DNA of 33,072 nucleotides from Pseudomonadota bacterium (GTDB lineage Bacteria > Myxococcota_A > UBA796 > CAJQPC01), in the NCBI GenBank assembly GCA_041160755.1, contig JBEAVX010000691.1:1-33072 (forward strand), read 5' to 3'. Positions 7,976-33,072 of the stretch are shown here, piece by piece; position 1 is the first letter of the stretch, and each line of letters starts with the position of its first letter. The notes below the pieces were generated by a model that had not been told where the DNA came from, searched no databases, and saw nothing but the letters and a program-made list of their open reading frames with translations. The translations under genes and the position numbers were made by a program.

Positions 7976-8059
7976 TTGATGACCCTTTCGCTTCGTGAGC
8001 GAAGTGATGGGTGGCTGTGGAGCGCTGGGGCCGCGACTGTAGCGCGACCCCTCGCGCGC

Positions 8060-8341
8060 TCAGCGCACCTTTGTTTTCCGATCCGCGGCGTGGCCGAAGA
8101 AGGTACGGGTAGGGGAGAACTCGCCGAGCTTGTGCCCGACCATGTTCTCCGTCACATACACAGTCACGAACTTTTTACCGTTGTGAACTGCGAACGTCAA
8201 CCCGATGAAGTCGGGGAGGATGGTTGAGCGCCGGCTCCAGGTCTTGACGACAGGGGCGCCTTGGCCGGAGCTCCGGGCGAGGACCGCCTTCTTCTCCAGG
8301 TGGGCATCCACAAAGGGGCCCTTCTTGATTGAGCGTGCCAC
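8060..8341 (-). CDS. rpsS: 30S ribosomal protein S19
   Basis: [52 protein letters not shown] motifs. GTG start with AGGAG. Confidence 0.95.
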
Positions 8342-8355
8342 GAGAACTCCTGAAC

Positions 8356-9180
8356 CTACTTACGGCGCTTGACGATGAAGGCGGTGCTCGGCTTCTTGCG
8401 CGAGCGAGTCTTGTAACCACGAGTGGGCTGACCCCAGGGCGTCACGGGGTGACGACCGCCGGAGGTCTTGCCCTCACCACCACCGTGCGGGTGGTCGATG
8501 GGGTTCATGGTGACGCCACGGTTGTGAGGACGACGCCCCAGCCACCGAGCGCGACCCGCCTTACCCAGAGAGATGTTCTCGTGCTCAAGGTTACCGACCT
8601 GGCCGATGGTGGCGAGGCAGTTCTCGTGAACACGACGGAGCTCACCGGAGGGCAGACGGAGGAGGACATAGCTGTTCTCCTTCGCCATGACCTGGGCGTA
8701 GCTCCCGGCCGAGCGGCAGAGCTGACCGCCGCGAGACGGGTAGAGCTCCACGTTGTGCACCCAGGTGCCCAGGGGAACGGACGCGAGACGCATCGCGTTG
8801 CCGGGCTTGATGTCGGCCTGGTCTGAGGTGACGATGGTGTCGCCGACCTTCAGGTTGTTGGGGTGCAGAATGTACCGCTTCTCGCCGTCCTTGTAGTGGA
8901 TGAGGGCGATGTTCGCGGTGCGGTTGGGATCGTACTCCACGGACGCGACGCAGCCGGGCACGCCCTGCTTGTCACGACGGAAGTCGATCAAACGGTAGCG
9001 GCGCTTGTGGCCACCGCCGCGGAAGCGGCTGGTGACGCGACCGAAGTTGTTGCGACCGCCAGTGCCGCGCATCGGGAGGACCAACGAACGCTCAGGAGAG
9101 CCCGTGGTGATCTCAGCGAAGTCCGACACCGTCTTGAAGCGGAGGCCGTTGCTCGTAGGCTTGAAGCTCTTGGTTCCCAT
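8356..9180 (-). CDS. rplB: 50S ribosomal protein L2
   Basis: GRNN.GR.T.R.RGGGHKR.YR.IDF.R and [11 protein letters not shown]....GRHPVTPWG motifs. Confidence 0.97.
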
Positions 9181-9196
9181 GTCTACCTCAATGACC

Positions 9197-9496
9197 TCAG
9201 GCCTGGGCTTCGTCGCTGAAGAAGTTCAGCACGTCACCGCCCGCGAGCTTGACGTATGCCTTCTTCCAGTCAGACCGACGCCCGGAGTGGCGACCGAAAC
9301 GCTTGTTTTTGCCACGGACCACCGAAGTCCGCACCGCCTCGACGCTCACCCCGAAGAAGGCCTCAACAGCGGCCTTGATCTGGATCTTGTTGGCCTTGAG
9401 GCCAACCGCGAAGACGTAGGTGTTCTGAGTGGACTCCAGAACGGCGCCCTTCTCGGTGGTCAGCGGACGGAGGAGCACATCATGAATCTGCGCCAT
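9197..9496 (-). CDS. rplW: 50S ribosomal protein L23
   Basis: 99 aa, L.RP..TEK and KKAYV.L motifs, positioned between L4 and L2. Confidence 0.93.
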
Positions 9497-9499
9497 CTC

Positions 9500-10123
9500 T
9501 CACCTCCCCAGCCGCGACACGATGGAGTCGACCGCAGCGCTGGTGACCGCGATGTTCTTGTGCTTGAGCACGTCGTAGACGTTGAGCCCGGCGACCGGCA
9601 GCACCTGCACATCGGGAAGGTTGCGAGCCGACAAGTAGACGGCGCTGTCCTTCTCGGGCAGGATGAGCAGCAGGTCATCGAAGCCGAAGCTGTCCATCAC
9701 CTTACGAAACTCCTTGGTCTTCACCGCGGAGAGCTCGAAGGCGTTGAAGACCGTCAGCTTGGACTCTTGCACGCGCCGAGAGAGGGCGCAGCAGAGGGCC
9801 GCACGACGGACCTTCTTGGAGACCTTGAAGCCGTGGTCCCGGGGGGTCGGCCCGTGGACGACACCACCGCCCCGCATCTGGGGGGCGCGGATCGTGCCTT
9901 GACGAGCGCGGCCGGTCCCCTTCTGCTTGAAGGGCTTGCGGCCACCGCCGGACACCTCGCACCGGGACTTCACCTTGTGGGTGCCGGCGCGACGGTTGGC
10001 GAGCTGGTACCGCACCACCGTGTAGAAGAGGTGCTCTTTCACTTCAACGCCAAAGATGTCGTCGGGCAGCTCGACTGAGCCGACGGTCTCCTTGGCTGTG
10101 TTGACTACGTCAATCGTAGGCAT
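9500..10123 (-). CDS. rplD: 50S ribosomal protein L4
   Basis: [31 protein letters not shown] motif. Its start lies only 84 nt downstream of the rpsJ stop. Confidence 0.95.
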
Positions 10124-10207
10124 CTTTGAGCTCCATCGTGACGCCAGTTCTCCACCCTTGAGATCAAGGATGTGGCGCCCGACTGAATCAGTGGGAAGGG
10201 TGTCCGC

Positions 10208-10522
10208 TCAGGACAGCTTGATCTCGACGTGAACACCAGCCGAGAGGTCGAGCTTCATGAGCGCGTCCACGGTCTGCTGGGTGGGCTCAAGAATGTCGAG
10301 GAGGCGGTGATGCGTGCGGCGCTCGAACTGCTCACGGGACTTCTTGTCGACGTGAGGGCCACGAAGAACCGTCCAGCGGGAGACCGTCGTGGGCAGGGGA
10401 AAGGGACCGCGGATGCGCACGCCAGTGCGTCGAGCGGTCTCCACGATCTCCCCAGCGCTCCGATCCAGCAGCTTGTGGTCGTAGGCCTTGAGACGAATAC
10501 GAATCTTGTTGGTGCTGGCCAT
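10208..10522 (-). CDS. rpsJ: 30S ribosomal protein S10
   Basis: [14 protein letters not shown]...IVETA.RTG....GP.PLPT and R.H.RLLDI..PT..TVDALM.LDL.AGV.V.I motifs. Confidence 0.97.
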
Positions 10523-10648
10523 GAGATGACGGTCCTGTTCGTTTCTGACGTACCAGCCTGCTCGGGGGTTGTCCGGCGCGGCGGGCTCGATGGATTCGGG
10601 CTGATCGGGGTGGATGTCCAGGAGGGGCGGACAGCGACTCCGAGAAGA

Positions 10649-10678
10649 CGCAACAACCGCGCTTAGCCGGTCGTTGCG
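10649..10678 (-). promoter_or_regulatory. Hairpin in the 247-nt EF-G-like/rpsJ spacer (terminator of the upstream gene or an S10-leader-type attenuator)
   Basis: Transcript: CGCAACGACCG-GCUAAGCG-CGGUUGUUGCG (11 bp including one G-U) followed by UCUUCUC. It lies about 125 nt upstream of the rpsJ ATG. Confidence 0.4.
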
Positions 10679-10769
10679 GAGTTGGCCACCCTGAAGATCA
10701 CCTTTCCCCTCTCTGCCGCATCGGCGGCGCGGTTGGGGGCAGGTTCAGGAGGGCTCATGCGCATGGTGG

Positions 10770-12863
10770 TCACGGTTCGCTCTTTACACGATCACCCACG
10801 AGGGGCTCGAAGATGAGGCGAGAGAGCTTGGGGGGCGCGGGGGAATGACGGGAGAACTGGATGCTGGCCGACGAACGGCCTTGTGTGGCCGATCGCAGCG
10901 CGGTTGTGTAACCAACCAGCTCGGCGAGGGGCACGTCGGCCTCGATGACCTGTAGCGGCGGTCTCGGCGTCGTCGAGGTGACGATCCCGCGTCGCGCCTG
11001 GAGGTCACCCAGGACCCCGCCCATATAGTCGCCCGGCGTGCGAACCTCAAGGCGCATGATCGGCTCCATCACCATGATCGACGATCTTTTCAGCGCGTCG
11101 TCCAAGGCGAGGCCCGCCGCGACCCGGGCCGCGATCAGCGCTCCAGGCCCTGGCTCACACGATCCACCGCTCACGGAGACCCGCGCGAAGGCCAGCGGGG
11201 CCCCTCCGCCGAGGGCGTTCTCCACCCCGGCACGAAGCGCGCTGACGATCGCCTCGGCGTAGTCTTCAGGCAGGGCGATCGCCGCCCAGCCGGGCTCGAT
11301 GCTCACCAGAGGCACGTCGGGCTGCAGCGTGAGCCGAACCTCAAGCGTCGCGCGTTGTTCACCCGCGCTGGTCACCAGGCGGTGGCTCCCCTCCCCCACC
11401 GCGCTGACGCTCGGCGCCAGCAGGTAGGTGACCCGAGGCTGGCCCACACGAAGGGCGAGGCCGTGCTCCCGTCGCAGGCGCTCGACGGCGATCTCCAGGT
11501 GCAGCTCGCCCATGCCCTCCAGCACACGCTGGCCCGTCTGAGGATCGACGGTGAGGCGCAGGGTGGGGTCTTCTAGCAAAGGGCGCTGGAGCGCGGCGTT
11601 GAGGCGCTCTTCGCTCTCGACGGTCTCGGCCTCGATCACGACGCCGAGCACCGGCGACGGGGGCGTGAGCGGCTCCAGGAGCAGCGGAGCGCCGGGGTCG
11701 CAGAGGGTGTCGCCCGTGATCGGGTGGGTGAGCCCAGCGACGACGGTGATCGCGCCCGCCTCGGCGACGCTCACCGGCTCCAGCTCCTCGGCGTGGGCGG
11801 CGAAGAGCTGGGTGATCGTCTGCTGCGCGCCCGTGCGCGGGTTGAGCACGACGTCCCCCACTCGCAAGGCGCCCGAGTACACCCGGGTGAACGCGAGCAG
11901 GCCCTCGTCCCGATCGTGAACGAGCTTAAACACGAGCGCGCAGGCACGCTCCGAGAGCTCGGGGCGGCGACGCTCAGACGTACCCCGTCCCATGGCGCTC
12001 ACGCCGTGGCAAGGCCCCACGTCCGCCGGGGAGGGCAGAAGCTCGATCACCGCGTCCAAGAGGGGCTGCACGCCCTGGTGGTGCTTCGCCGCGCCGCAGA
12101 AGACCGGGACCAGCGCCCCCTCCAGCACACGTTGGCGCGCGTCGGCGTAGAGGTCGGCGGGGCTCACCTCTCCGGTGGCGAGGTATCGCTCCATGACCGC
12201 GTCGCTGTGCAGCGCGGCGTTGAGGAGCGCCTCGCGGCCAAAGGCGAGCTCGACCTCCAGAGACTCAGGCACTGGCGCGGCCTGCACGATCACGCCGCGG
12301 TCTTGGCGGGTGAACGTCAGGAGCTTGGCGTGGACGAGGTCGAGCACGCCGAGCAGGCGCCCATCCTCGACGACGGGGAGCTGAAACGGCACGGCGGGGG
12401 CGTTGAGGCGGCTCTGCAGGTCGGCGAGGCAGCGGTCAAAGTCGGCGCCGACCCGATCGAGCTTGTTGATGAACACCAGGCGCGGCACCCCGCGCGCGTC
12501 CGCCTGGGCCCAGACGTGCTCGGTCTGCGGCTGCACACCTTCGCTCGCCGAGAGCACGACGATCGCCCCGTCGAGCACTCGGAGCGAGCGCTCAACCTCG
12601 ATGGTGAAGTCGACGTGCCCGGGGGTGTCGATGAGGTGGATGACATGATCACGCCAGCCCACGCGCGTCGCGGCGGCGCCGATGGTGATGCCCCGCTCGC
12701 GCTCCTGGACCATAAAGTCCATGGTCGCCGTGCCGTCGTCCACCTCCCCGGGGATGCGGATGCGGCCCGTCGCCATGAGGATCCGCTCGGTGAGCGTGGT
12801 CTTCCCGGCGTCGATGTGGGCGAGGATGCCGATGTTTCGAATGCGGCGGATCATCGGGTCCAT
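10770..12863 (-). CDS. Divergent elongation factor G paralogue (translational GTPase, EF-G family)
   Basis: G1 AHIDAGKT, G2 RGITI, G3 DTPGHVDF, G4 NKLD, domain II TGDTLCD, and domain V PLAELVGYTTALRS.TQGR are present. The EF-G domain-IV motifs KQSGGRGQYG and SYHDVDSS are replaced by RLVTSAGEQRATL and GSCEPGPGA. The gene occupies the fusA slot after rpsG. Confidence 0.85.
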   Translation of the reverse strand: MDPMIRRIRNIGILAHIDAGKTTLTERILMATGRIRIPGEVDDGTATMDFMVQERERGITIGAAATRVGWRDHVIHLIDTPGHVDFTIEVERSLRVLDGAIVVLSASEGVQPQTEHVWAQADARGVPRLVFINKLDRVGADFDRCLADLQSRLNAPAVPFQLPVVEDGRLLGVLDLVHAKLLTFTRQDRGVIVQAAPVPESLEVELAFGREALLNAALHSDAVMERYLATGEVSPADLYADARQRVLEGALVPVFCGAAKHHQGVQPLLDAVIELLPSPADVGPCHGVSAMGRGTSERRRPELSERACALVFKLVHDRDEGLLAFTRVYSGALRVGDVVLNPRTGAQQTITQLFAAHAEELEPVSVAEAGAITVVAGLTHPITGDTLCDPGAPLLLEPLTPPSPVLGVVIEAETVESEERLNAALQRPLLEDPTLRLTVDPQTGQRVLEGMGELHLEIAVERLRREHGLALRVGQPRVTYLLAPSVSAVGEGSHRLVTSAGEQRATLEVRLTLQPDVPLVSIEPGWAAIALPEDYAEAIVSALRAGVENALGGGAPLAFARVSVSGGSCEPGPGALIAARVAAGLALDDALKRSSIMVMEPIMRLEVRTPGDYMGGVLGDLQARRGIVTSTTPRPPLQVIEADVPLAELVGYTTALRSATQGRSSASIQFSRHSPAPPKLSRLIFEPLVGDRVKSEP

Positions 12864-12909
12864 CAGAAAAAAGAGACGGCCCGCTGAGCACCAAGGCGCT
12901 CAGCGGGCC
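12864..12909 (-). terminator. Rho-independent terminator between rpsG and the EF-G paralogue
   Basis: Transcript: GGCCCGCUGAGC-GCCUUGGU-GCUCAGCGGGCC (perfect 12-bp stem, 12878-12889/12898-12909) followed by GUCUCUUUUUUCUG. The U-tract ends 3 nt before the ATG at 12863. Confidence 0.75.
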
Positions 12910-12929
12910 GCGAAGAGGTGACGGCGCGA

Positions 12930-13400
12930 TTACCAGCGGTAGTGCGCGAACGCCTTGTTGGCCTCGGCCATACGGTGGGTCTCGTCCTTCCGCTTCACCG
13001 CGTTGCCGCGGTTGTGGGAGGCCTCGATCAGCTCGTTGGCGAGCTTCTCTTGCATGGACCGGCCGCTGCGCTTGCGGGCGAAGATGATGATCCACCGCAT
13101 CGCGAGCGCCATACGACGATCGTTGCGGACCTCGATCGGCACCTGGTAGGTAGAGCCACCCACGCGGCGAGACTTGACCTCCACCAAAGGAGAGACGTTC
13201 TCAAGCGCCCGCCGGAAGACCTTGATGGGCTCCTCGCGGGTGCGATCCTCGATGACATCGAACGCACCATAGACGATGGACTCGGCGACAGCCTTTTTTC
13301 CATCTTCCATCACGGCGTTCATGAACTTGGTCACCGCCTTGTCCCCAAACTTGGGGTCAGGCAGCACAATACGCTTGGGGACTTCGTGACGACGAGGCAT
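12930..13400 (-). CDS. rpsG: 30S ribosomal protein S7
   Basis: MPRR......I.PDPKFGD..V.KF.N..M..GKK..AE.I.Y.A and AFAHYRW C-terminus. Confidence 0.97.
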
Positions 13401-13411
13401 GGATCAGAACC

Positions 13412-13786
13412 TTACTTCTTGGGCCGCTTGGCGCCGTACTTGGAGCGGCCCTGGCGCCGGGCGTTGACGCCCTGGGAGTCGAGGGTGCCGCGGATGATGT
13501 GGTACCGAACGCCAGGCAGGTCCTTGACGCGACCACCACGAATGAGCACCGAGGAGTGCTCTTGGAGGTTGTGGCCCTCACCACCGATGTAGGCGGTGAC
13601 CTCCATGTCGTTGGTGAGACGAACACGGGCGACCTTACGGAGCGCCGAGTTGGGCTTCTTGGGGGTGGTCGTGTACACACGAGTGCAGACGCCGCGCTTC
13701 TGCGGGCAGCCCATGAGGGCGGGCGACTTGGACTTGGTCGCAACCTTCTGCCGTCCCTTACGGACGAGCTGGTTGATGGTGGGCAT
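13412..13786 (-). CDS. rpsL: 30S ribosomal protein S12
   Basis: [40 protein letters not shown] and [28 protein letters not shown] motifs. Confidence 0.98.
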
Positions 13787-13930: not shown

Positions 13931-18742
<4,812 letters not shown>

Positions 18743-26870: not shown

Positions 26871-28100
<1,230 letters not shown>

Positions 28101-30839: not shown

Positions 30840-33072
30840 TCAGTTGAGCTGCTTGAAGGTCAGCTCGTACTCGCCTGTGTCGCCGCCGCCAGAGACGACG
30901 ATGGTGTACTTGCTACCGCCAACCACCGTCGCCGTCAACACGGCCTCTTCGCCGGTCTTGCCGCTGCGGCCGCCGAAGTTGTAGATGACCGACGCGGTCG
31001 GGTCCTCGTCCTCGTCGATCTCGTCGAGGTCGAAGCCGTCCGAGGTCAAGAAGCCGCTCCCCAAGGTGCCGCCGTTGTTGGTGCACTGCTGCACCCAGAC
31101 CTGCTCTTGAAACGACGTGGGCTTGGGCTCGCTGTTGTCTACGACGCCGTCCTGGTCCCAGTCGTCGGTGCAGGCGCCCGCCGTGGCGTAGCCGCCGCAG
31201 GGGTCGAAGTCCGACGAGGTGGCCAGGGCCGTCGAGCTCAAGAAGAGCTGGTAGTAGAGGTAGTCCAGCACCAGGTTGGGGTACTCCCACTCCTCTTCGC
31301 CGCCGTCGCAGGCCGTCGAGACGGTGTCGGTGACCGTGGGCTGGGGCAGATCGTCGCTCTCGACGATGGCCATCCAGGGGTCTTCAGGGGTGGAGTCGCC
31401 GGAGGTGGACGAGAAGCGGCGGTCGAGCCACACCGCGATCTGGATGACCTCCCCCTTGGTGCGATCGGTGAGGTCGAGCTGGAAGCGGTCGAGGTCCTCC
31501 ACCGTCTCGGCGGACTCTTCGCCCGCGTCGGTGAGCACGCGGGTCGTCGCCGGGGTGGAGATGTCGCCGATGGCGTAGATCGGGCTGCCGTCTGCGGGGA
31601 GGGACGGCAGGTAGACCAGGTTGGAGTCGAGCGGCGAGTAGATGCGGTCTACGGCGGTGTCGTCGAAGGAGGGATCACGCCAGCGGATCACGGTGCCGTA
31701 GAAGCTCGCGCTGGTGTCTTCGAGCTCGACGATGGTGGCGCTGTACTGGATCTTGGTCAGGCGGCTGATGTGGGCGCCGTAGCCCCCGGCGGCGTAGCCG
31801 TAGTACTCGGAGCCCGTGACGTAGGTGTGGTGATCGAGGCCGTCGGCGACGATGCGCTGGTCGGTGTTCTCCTCGGGGACGTCCGTGGTGCCGCCCTCCA
31901 TCCAGCGGTTCGTGCCGCGCACGTTGAAGCCGGTCTGGTAGCCGTTGGCGCCGTAGTAGATGCCGATGGTGGGCTCGTCGGGGGCGACGGTGGGCGCGGA
32001 GATCGCCGTGGCCTCGGCGAACGGAGGCCACTCCTCGGGATCGACCAGGGGCTCTCCGGCGCTGTTCGTGACCCCGGTGGTGAGGAGCGCGACCTGCCAC
32101 TGGAGCACGAGGGTGTCGAAGCTCTCGCCGGTGGCGGCCTCGATGTTCGCCGTGCCGATCTCCGTGGTGTTCGTCAGCGACGTGAGGAGGTCGGTGCCGT
32201 AGGTGTCGATGAGCCAGCGCGCGAAGAGGTACTGCGCGCCGCGGGAGCCCGTCGCGAAGAGAGACGAGCTGTCGTAGTCGGTGAGGCCCTCTAGGTAGGG
32301 GGCGTCCATGTAGTTCCAGGCGTCCTCGTAGTACACCGCGCCGAAGCCGCAGATGTCCGTGGCCAAGGCGCCGAGCGCCTCGGTGAGCCAGGACTCCTCT
32401 TCTTCCCCTTCGCTGGCGATGACGTGGGTGTTGTAGAGCACGAGGCGGAGGTAAGACCGCGCGATCTCGGCGGTCAGCTCCATCGTCGTGTACTCGTCCA
32501 CCGTCGTCGTCTTGTAGGGGTTGTAGAAGCCGTAGGGGTCGGGGGCGAAGACGTAGATGATCTCTTGCTCGTCCGAGGACGGGTTCGTCTTGTCGTCGAA
32601 GGTCGAGAGATCGGACTCGGGGTCGGCGTAAGAGAAGACCTTGGACCAGTCGTCCTCGTCATCAGAGGTGAGCGGCAAGGTGTTGAGCACGGGGCTCACG
32701 AGCACGGTGATCTTGCCGTCCTCGTTGATGTCCGAGGGCTCGCCGAAGAGGTGATCGACGTTGACGATGATGTTGTTGTCGACGATGTCGGCGACGGTCT
32801 GGAGGTCGCAGTTGGTGAAGCCGTAGCTGTCGTAGACCGCGTAGCTGTCGACCACACCGTCACACTCGTAGTCCCAGTCGATCGGCACCTCGTCATCGAC
32901 GTAGATGGCGATCTTGCTGCCGAGCGCCCACAGGGTGGCGGTGATCGACGACACGCTCTTCGCCGAGCTGTAGTCGTCGCGCACGCGGAACTCGGTGGTC
33001 TTCGTGCCGATGTCGTCTTCGCTCACCGCCGGGGCGGGCAAGGGCTGGGCCAAGGGGCGGCGGAGCTTGGGC
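30840..33072 (-). CDS. Large acidic secreted protein, 5' end outside the window; M30 (hyicolysin)-like region lacking HExxH, C-terminal PPC-like domain
   Basis: The frame is open to the window edge, and the TTG at 33053 is only the ORF-caller start. No signal peptide is visible, which is consistent with truncation. Features: Ca-binding-type loops DINEDGKIT and DDWDQDGVVDNSE, an ESWLTEALG motif, and a C-terminal beta-rich GSKYTIVVSGGGDTGEYELTFK segment typical of pre-peptidase C-terminal domains. Confidence 0.7.
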   Translation of the reverse strand, partial: PKLRRPLAQPLPAPAVSEDDIGTKTTEFRVRDDYSSAKSVSSITATLWALGSKIAIYVDDEVPIDWDYECDGVVDSYAVYDSYGFTNCDLQTVADIVDNNIIVNVDHLFGEPSDINEDGKITVLVSPVLNTLPLTSDDEDDWSKVFSYADPESDLSTFDDKTNPSSDEQEIIYVFAPDPYGFYNPYKTTTVDEYTTMELTAEIARSYLRLVLYNTHVIASEGEEEESWLTEALGALATDICGFGAVYYEDAWNYMDAPYLEGLTDYDSSSLFATGSRGAQYLFARWLIDTYGTDLLTSLTNTTEIGTANIEAATGESFDTLVLQWQVALLTTGVTNSAGEPLVDPEEWPPFAEATAISAPTVAPDEPTIGIYYGANGYQTGFNVRGTNRWMEGGTTDVPEENTDQRIVADGLDHHTYVTGSEYYGYAAGGYGAHISRLTKIQYSATIVELEDTSASFYGTVIRWRDPSFDDTAVDRIYSPLDSNLVYLPSLPADGSPIYAIGDISTPATTRVLTDAGEESAETVEDLDRFQLDLTDRTKGEVIQIAVWLDRRFSSTSGDSTPEDPWMAIVESDDLPQPTVTDTVSTACDGGEEEWEYPNLVLDYLYYQLFLSSTALATSSDFDPCGGYATAGACTDDWDQDGVVDNSEPKPTSFQEQVWVQQCTNNGGTLGSGFLTSDGFDLDEIDEDEDPTASVIYNFGGRSGKTGEEAVLTATVVGGSKYTIVVSGGGDTGEYELTFKQLN

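Follow-up and report, generated by a model that had tools for sequence, protein, structure and literature searches.

Does the gene in the fusA position of the str operon necessarily encode the translocase? The question is raised by a 33,072-nt stretch of DNA (hereafter the window; contig JBEAVX010000691.1 of assembly GCA_041160755.1) from a metagenome-assembled genome (MAG) of an uncultured Myxococcota lineage, in which the housekeeping slot after rpsG is occupied by an EF-G-like gene whose product has both tip loops of domain IV replaced. An earlier note on this DNA, made from its letters alone, took the product for a specialised EF-G2, recycling-only or ribosome-rescue-like factor. Our analysis shows that the loss of conserved EF-G positions is specific to domain IV, and that the new loops, once replaced, have been conserved under purifying selection instead of drifting. 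The reading that we favour, to which we would give about an even chance, is that the resident str-operon fusA no longer serves as the translocase and survives, under selection, as a specialised GTPase dependent on the ribosome, most likely one that acts in recycling. The gene and its domains are laid out as follows.

10770-12863, minus strand: EF-G-like coding sequence, 697 aa, ATG start and TGA stop (from the open reading frame (ORF) list, Pfam and NCBIfam)

11994-12863, minus strand: G domain and G' insert, residues 1-290 (Pfam GTP_EFTU at 7-278, E 1e-62)

11664-11993, minus strand: domain II, residues 291-400 (Pfam EF-G_D2 and GTP_EFTU_D2)

11427-11663, minus strand: domain III, residues 401-479 (Pfam EFG_III at 402-474, E 6e-24)

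11064-11426, minus strand: remodelled domain IV, residues 480-600 (predicted fold kept, without a Pfam EFG_IV match)

10770-11063, minus strand: domain V, C-terminal helix and stop codon, residues 601-697 (Pfam EFG_C at 598-680, E 1e-24)

The earlier note had described the GTPase motifs and the signatures of domains II, III and V as EF-G-like, and the Pfam matches bear this out: G1 (AHIDAGKT), G2 (RGITI), G3 (DTPGH, with the catalytic His kept) and G4 (NKLD) could all be located, while the usual RERxxRLxxMHAN stretch of domain II reads QQTITQLFAAHAE in the window protein. The same Pfam scan gave no match to EFG_IV (PF03764), and the best NCBIfam model, TIGR00484 for canonical EF-G, scored 613.1 bits, below its curated equivalog cut-off of 659.4. 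Some orthologues carry only the NCBI name 'GTP-binding protein', an exact look-up returned no record of the window protein itself, and for its 694-aa versions in related MAGs NCBI chose another in-frame ATG, at codon 4. The structure prediction that the earlier note had proposed retained the EF-G domain-IV fold: the AlphaFold2 (AF2) model has a mean predicted local distance difference test (pLDDT) score of 83.4, with block means of 69-92 in domain IV, and its top Foldseek matches are full-length EF-G structures with template modelling (TM) scores of up to 0.82. The two tip loops were placed by HMMER alignment to Thermus thermophilus EF-G.

11343-11381, minus strand: tip loop 1, with RLVTSAGEQRATL substituted for RQTGGRGQYGHV

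11139-11165, minus strand: tip loop 2, with GSCEPGPGA substituted for GSYHEVDSS

Because this alignment runs gapless across all of domain IV, the possibility which the earlier note itself had raised, that its motif alignment was shifted, falls away; its statement that neither loop is conserved holds, and its approximate coordinates (about 11343-11384 and 11133-11171) can be narrowed to the exact ones above. In loop 1, the universal glycines GG have become SA in the window protein and GA in other members of its clade. In loop 2, which is now Pro/Gly-rich, the translocation-critical His is gone, and by E. coli numbering S588 is replaced by A and E589 by L.

How far the divergence extends beyond the tip can be judged from the near-invariant positions, defined as those at least 94% conserved among 35 canonical EF-Gs, of which domain IV holds 30. 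The window protein keeps nine of these 30 (30%), having lost 70% of them, while it keeps 89% in the G core, 81% in G', 79% in domain II, 76% in domain III and 81% in domain V. Its identity to the nearest canonical EF-G is 23% inside domain IV and 51% outside it, compared with 54% in domain IV between a Moorella EF-G and that nearest canonical EF-G. We considered a domain swap from another family and rejected it. An exhaustive HMMER search with domain IV alone gave no better donor, returning 20 matches at E<=1e-3 among 1.84 billion representatives (best 1.4e-7, 32% identity); since the three longest of these matches, once classified, are EFG I-like, no donor family is seen. Many of the 20 also have non-canonical tips. 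Among 5.8 billion protein clusters the closest relatives of the window protein form only one 90% cluster of 26 members (P0001, 97% identical), and the next best are canonical EF-Gs at 46-47% identity. The nearest canonical group consists of 692-aa EF-Gs, some named for Myxococcota MAGs, which are themselves about 64-65% identical to the EF-Gs of Firmicutes and other phyla.

Is such a gene still maintained, or is it simply decaying beside another EF-G that has made it redundant? Related loci were recovered by a domain-IV genome scan (three MAGs), an exact look-up of the S7 protein (ten usable loci) and the member list of the cluster; six GenBank MAGs, labelled Myxococcota or Deltaproteobacteria, carry the locus (JADKFE01, JADJYZ01, JADJIW01, JAKLKD01, JAKLKE01 and the window's own), as do several further metagenome contigs from ENA and JGI. 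In all of them the gene order is the same, RpoC has 1603 aa, and no rplC stands between rpsJ and rplD. An intact ORF of exactly 2094 nt is found in nine of 13 related loci, the window included, across lineages with synonymous divergence (dS) of up to 0.4. The pairwise ratio of non-synonymous to synonymous divergence (dN/dS) is 0.07-0.13 overall; by region it is 0.015-0.04 in residues 1-150 (G core), 0.025-0.045 in domain III, 0.04-0.08 in domain V and 0.09-0.20 in domain IV. Within domain IV the most conserved part is residues 537-600, comprising loop 2 and both domain-IV helices, which is near-invariant in the clade with a ratio of non-synonymous to synonymous differences (pN/pS) of about 0.06. 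Loop 2 is identical in all eight intact clade sequences, with pN 0 against pS 0.18-0.27 in five of six pairs, the sixth pair being unchanged, and loop 1 aligns across the clade as HRLVT[SG]AGEQ[RS]ATL with pN 0-0.066 and pS up to 0.68. To call the loops 'degenerated', as the earlier note did, is thus misleading.

A decay towards a pseudogene could draw on the accelerated rate of the gene, on its GC-drifted composition described below and on the frameshifts that break four of the 13 loci (L083, L090, L092 and L093). In L092 and L093, however, rpoC or rplD is broken as well, which indicates assembly error for these two contigs. In L083 (MAG.430, JAKLKE010000007.1, about 4x coverage) a 17-nt deletion lies in domain IV near 10150-10160, and in L090 (JGI Ga0558119_03121) a 1-nt deletion breaks the frame; the neighbouring genes are intact in both, and these two deletions could reflect real inactivation in some populations or errors of assembly. 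Because the dN/dS is 0.07-0.13 and the ORF is intact in nine of 13 loci, we reject the pseudogene reading for the clade: the gene is maintained. With the strong constraint on residues 537-600 added, decay is largely refuted and in our estimate very improbable.

Maintained as it is, the gene is not under housekeeping constraint, as follows from its fast rate, its higher dN and dS, its lower codon adaptation index (CAI) and the terminator upstream of it. Within the clade, EF-G-like proteins are 92-96% identical, while S7, S12 and S10 are 100% identical, RpoB 99.2-99.8% and RpoC 98-99.9%. The dN of the EF-G-like gene is about four times that of rpoC, and its dS is 0.32-0.40 versus 0.10-0.19. Its CAI is 0.67 compared with 0.86 for tuf and 0.81-0.83 for rpoB and rpoC, on weights derived from the ribosomal-protein genes in the window itself; several of those genes have a CAI no higher than that of the EF-G-like gene. 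It is richer in the codons CGA, AGA, GGG and GGA, has a GC content of 0.70 versus 0.61-0.65 for its neighbours, and encodes 36% Gly, Ala, Arg and Pro (GARP) residues versus 32% in the closest canonical EF-G, with Lys at 1.1%; its composition has drifted with GC. Directly upstream lies the following element.

12866-12911, minus strand: intrinsic-terminator-like hairpin within the 66-nt spacer between rpsG and the EF-G-like gene (terminator scan)

The hairpin has 16 bp, 12 of them G-C pairs, and a 4-nt loop, and is followed by CTCTTTTTTC; its minimum free energy is -41.3 kcal/mol (z -6.05). It ends 2 nt from the ATG, which leaves no Shine-Dalgarno sequence for the EF-G-like gene. All 13 clade loci keep it, with one compensated change from a C-G to a U-A pair and with U-G intermediates; the S7-fusA spacers of six other lineages (L085, L097, L098, L099, L103 and L105) lack it. 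A similar terminator-like hairpin does, however, precede the canonical fusA of another organism (L084), and for this reason the hairpin is only weak evidence for low expression. An Rfam scan of the window found four tRNAs only, and no known leader in the spacers flanking the EF-G-like gene. The 247-nt spacer on its other side, towards rpsJ (10523-10769, minus strand), shows in simple scans neither an Rfam match nor a terminator-like site nor a sigma-70-like promoter.

Where did this protein come from? The synteny, together with the fact that its identity is highest to the Myxococcota 692-aa EF-G group, suggests at the level of sequence that the resident fusA diverged in place and that no EF-G2 was imported. 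The related lineage L085 (GCA_964457335.1; RpoC of 1580 aa, 74% identical; S12 90%; S7 71%) has in the same slot a canonical EF-G, P0004, which is 46% identical to the window protein and 64% identical to Moorella EF-G. The placement in the EF-G family that the earlier note had proposed succeeded in so far as TIGR00484 is the best model; the neighbour-joining tree was dominated by long branches, since with domain IV removed the clade falls on a very long branch beside the long branches of P0092 and P0002, an arrangement that we rejected as long-branch attraction. Nor is GKTTLTE of use as a derived marker shared with the 692-aa group, as it occurs in 96 of 217 sequences.

The clade does not stand alone in having an altered tip. 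From the retrieved EF-G matches we examined five further EFG I-type proteins of other uncultured lineages whose tips clearly depart from the canonical form, four of them encoded directly after rpsG.

L098, 6001-8091: tip-altered EF-G P0094, directly after rpsG

L105, 4691-6778: tip-altered EF-G P0116, directly after rpsG

L103, 5001-7079: tip-altered EF-G P0158, directly after rpsG, in a lineage with a 1581-aa RpoC

L097, 6001-8073: tip-altered EF-G P0175, directly after rpsG, in a lineage with a 1591-aa RpoC

L096 (BPJZ01000012.1), 8001-10085: tip-altered EF-G P0092 of Candidatus Poribacteria, outside the str operon

Examples of the tips in the four str-slot lineages are REVAGEKQYAEV with SYKTRDKEST and RQAAGKMQSAMV with GIYHEGEST. 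In P0092 the tips read RQLEERSLFAEV and GAKLRESGSNE, and the gene overlaps the end of an rsmB-like methyltransferase gene. Like the window protein, these five have a non-canonical loop 1, loop 2 or both; they differ from it in that the change is limited to the tip and that none has an upstream terminator. All five score 899-987 bits on TIGR00484 and keep the Pfam EFG_IV match, and the four str-slot proteins, having passed the TIGR00484 cut-off, would be annotated as ordinary EF-G. Because these proteins still score so highly, the window's clade is the extreme case of something that recurs.

With which of the known EF-G families, then, should the protein be compared? It shares with canonical EF-G (EFG I, TIGR00484) the five domains, G1-G4 with the catalytic His, the slot after rpsL-rpsG and the best hidden Markov model and structural matches, and differs from it by the score below the TIGR00484 cut-off, the undetected EFG_IV, the replacement of loop I (GGxGQ[YF]G) and loop II ([YF]H[DE]VDSS), and an identity of at most 47% to any canonical EF-G, compared with about 64% among canonical EF-Gs of different phyla. 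EFG II (the EF-G2 of Thermus thermophilus, Mycobacterium and Bacteroides) is likewise a divergent member of the EF-G family, but EFG II lacks RGITI and has many indels (PMC3150367), whereas the window protein has RGITI intact and is essentially gapless against EF-G; its scores on the EFG II models (NF009377, 361.6 versus a cut-off of 890; NF058620, 279.9 versus 1000) led us to reject membership. We also rejected spdEFG1 or mtEFG1, which are recognised by a three-residue KDG insertion (PMC3150367), as the gapless alignment leaves no switch I insertion, and the Tet(M)/Tet(O) type, as tet_protect (NF012153) gave 316 against a cut-off of 775. All NCBIfam models for EF-G2, Tet, RF3, BipA and LepA stay far below the TIGR00484 score.

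Comparison with the recycling-only paralogues is more instructive. With spdEFG2, Borrelia burgdorferi EF-G2 and EF-G2mt (RRF2mt) the window protein has in common that the GTPase is intact, that loop-1 glycine is lost and that it evolves faster than the translocase copy does (PMC8203779, PMC4342817), and its lineage, as the earlier note had supposed, belongs to a group with known subfunctionalised EF-Gs, since the former deltaproteobacteria count among the 'spd' groups (PMC3150367). It differs from the recycling-only paralogues in that the gene is in, or derived from, the str slot, that loop 2 is also replaced, that the whole of domain IV is divergent and that a partner spdEFG1 is only hypothetical here. 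Pseudomonas aeruginosa offers a parallel for the slot: its str-operon copy, EF-G1A, is a poor translocase that appears to act with RRF (ribosome recycling factor), while EF-G1B elongates (PMC3832671). EF-G1A is, however, 84% identical to EF-G1B, in contrast to the rewritten domain IV and the low identity found here. The window protein thus reads, by sequence, as a remodelled EFG I and not as a member of EFG II, spdEFG1, spdEFG2/mtEFG2 or Tet. Of the earlier note's proposal, the strong divergence with both tip loops replaced stands, to which is added the loop-1 glycine loss reported for the recycling-only EF-G2mt and Borrelia EF-G2 (PMC8203779); assignment to a named paralogue family is not supported.

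Let us now consider what such a protein might do. The parts needed for binding at the ribosomal factor site and for GTP hydrolysis are all kept: domains II, III and V, and G1-G4 including the His of catalysis. Domain IV, too, is kept at normal length and with its predicted fold, but carries TxAGEQRA and SCEPGPGA where canonical EF-G has its decoding-centre loops. The likeliest function would then be the splitting of post-termination ribosomes with RRF, as in mtEFG2 and Borrelia EF-G2, and translocation would be carried out by another EF-G encoded elsewhere in the genome. We infer all three of these points: that translocation has been lost, that recycling is what the protein still does, and that the genome encodes a second EF-G. 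With SA or GA where the loop-1 glycines stood, with the His of loop 2 lost, and with conservation in domain IV strongest in its two helices, the protein would be a translocation-incompetent, GTPase-competent factor. In E. coli EF-G, deletion of loop I abolishes translocation and leaves recycling intact, and H583K, S588P and E589A each dramatically impair translocation (PMC4666400). EF-G2mt and Borrelia EF-G2, both recycling-only, each lack one of the two universal loop-1 glycines, and in EF-G2mt the two domain-IV helices press on domain II of RRF (PMC8203779). In P. aeruginosa the activity of the str-operon EF-G1A in poly(Phe) synthesis is 75-fold lower, and this copy appears to work together with RRF (PMC3832671).

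Several observations weigh against this reading. Deletions in loop II of E. coli EF-G abolish recycling too, and S588P impairs it (PMC4666400); since the whole of loop II is replaced here, recycling competence is not assured. By sequence the window protein is no nearer to human mtEFG2 (412 bits), the recycling-only factor compared, than to canonical Thermus EF-G (535 bits). The provenance of the CAI weights and the L084 hairpin, both given above, belong here as well. Most directly, the second EF-G that it needs did not turn up: the accessions of the 20 closest canonical EF-Gs checked all fall outside the ranges of the clade MAGs, and no protein named for a clade MAG is among the 120 best relatives of P0004, although these negatives are non-exhaustive and cover the candidate proteins checked, not whole MAGs. 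P0002, P0004 and P0019, tried as candidates for the second EF-G, all lie in str operons of other organisms.

The full replacement of loop II, which might not fit recycling of the E. coli type (PMC4666400), also keeps alive as a real rival the view that the tip has acquired a new function: a neofunctionalised factor that performs neither translocation nor standard recycling and delivers its new tip to the region of the decoding centre and bridge B2a. It might rescue ribosomes that are stalled or hibernating, or it might behave like Tet(M)/Tet(O) and remove a ligand or antibiotic. That the new tips are conserved rather than merely lost suggests a new contact, and loop 2 is now Pro/Gly-rich while domain IV as a whole has diverged beyond the tip. 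On the other hand, the likeness to ribosome-protection proteins goes no further than the shared EF-G fold, as the tet_protect score indicates, the neighbourhood is purely ribosomal and holds no gene suggesting resistance or rescue, and we found no experiment showing that a factor of this kind has arisen from the copy in the str operon before. We regard this explanation as rather unlikely, though to be taken seriously.

That no second EF-G turned up among the proteins checked speaks for another scenario, in which the protein is the sole EF-G of its clade and still translocates, its remodelled tip contacting the decoding centre in a different way. The occupied housekeeping slot, purifying selection with intact GTPase motifs and the four other lineages whose str-slot EF-G has a more mildly changed tip are all in line with it. 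It has to be set against the crippling of E. coli translocation by single tip substitutions (PMC4666400), and against a survey of 305 genomes whose single-copy EF-Gs all belonged to the conserved EFG I type (PMC3150367). A rate several-fold faster than that of RpoB and RpoC and a CAI below those of tuf, rpoB and rpoC would be unexpected for an essential and abundant translocase, and the S12 encoded in the window keeps the canonical PNSA decoding-centre loop, giving no sign of a co-adapted partner. Taken together, we consider a sole, still translocating EF-G improbable, and recycling by the released fusA remains the reading that we prefer.

The surroundings of the gene are ribosomal. The minus strand carries, in this order, four tRNAs, tuf, secE, nusG, rplK, rplA, rplJ, rplL, rpoB, rpoC, rpsL, rpsG, the EF-G-like gene, rpsJ and rplD onwards, with the following genes of interest.

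13412-13786, minus strand: rpsL (S12), first gene of the str cluster (Pfam Ribosom_S12_S23 in related loci)

12930-13400, minus strand: rpsG (S7), directly upstream of the EF-G-like gene (Pfam Ribosomal_S7; identical protein on 22 contigs)

10208-10522, minus strand: rpsJ (S10), next downstream of the EF-G-like gene, past the 247-nt spacer (Pfam Ribosomal_S10, E 6e-37)

26871-28100, minus strand: tuf (EF-Tu), upstream of secE-nusG and beside tRNA-Thr/Tyr/Gly/Thr (Pfam GTP_EFTU, D2 and D3)

The earlier note had correctly placed the gene in the housekeeping slot after rpsG with no tuf following it; the only tuf within the 33-kb window is the upstream one. This is no anomaly, because in another organism (L099) a canonical fusA also directly precedes rpsJ.

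A few further observations concern the neighbours. Between rpsJ and rplD, where rpsJ-rplC-rplD is the order in the other lineages L098 and L099, rplC (L3) is missing and only an 84-nt spacer (10124-10207) is found, as likewise in L081, L082 and L086-L095. A tblastn search with an L3 protein gave nothing in the 33-kb window or in L081, L082, L086, L089 and L091; rplC, being essential, must have been relocated elsewhere in the genomes of the clade. The 1603-aa RpoC (rpoC, 13931-18742) has, compared with the 1377-aa RpoC of L098, a 238-aa insertion at residues 554-791 (16370-17083 of the window, minus strand). RpoCs of comparable length (1580-1591 aa) are also encoded in L085, L097 and L103, which are related lineages, and the insertion may be a marker of this Myxococcota branch. 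At the far end, a 737-aa ORF (30840-33053, minus strand) comes as close as 19 nt to the end of the window. It lies upstream of genes for an M50 peptidase and a LolA-like protein, lacks a Pfam match, and has a very high GC content at third codon positions (GC3, 0.95) and a high CAI (0.80).

Lastly, irrespective of which function proves right, we need to consider what this locus means for the family. EF-G paralogues that gave up translocation are already known; in this clade the remodelled copy is the one that occupies the housekeeping slot, and the remodelling has gone so far that the curated EF-G and EFG_IV models reject the protein, yet its new tip is conserved. It has been assumed that the str-operon copy 'remains stable throughout evolution' while the extra copy diverges (PMC3150367), and this clade together with the four milder str-slot lineages contradicts that assumption. 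Since str-slot tips are altered in this clade and in four other lineages, genomic position is an unsafe guide to translocase identity, and automated annotation will mislabel such genes. Should the protein be a true recycling factor, it would amount to a natural experiment on which parts of domain IV are needed for recycling. Should it instead be the sole EF-G of its clade, the universally conserved contacts of EF-G/EF-2 with the decoding centre would be dispensable or replaceable, the view that the tip is indispensable would be overturned, and the milder tips of the four other lineages would be steps along the same path.

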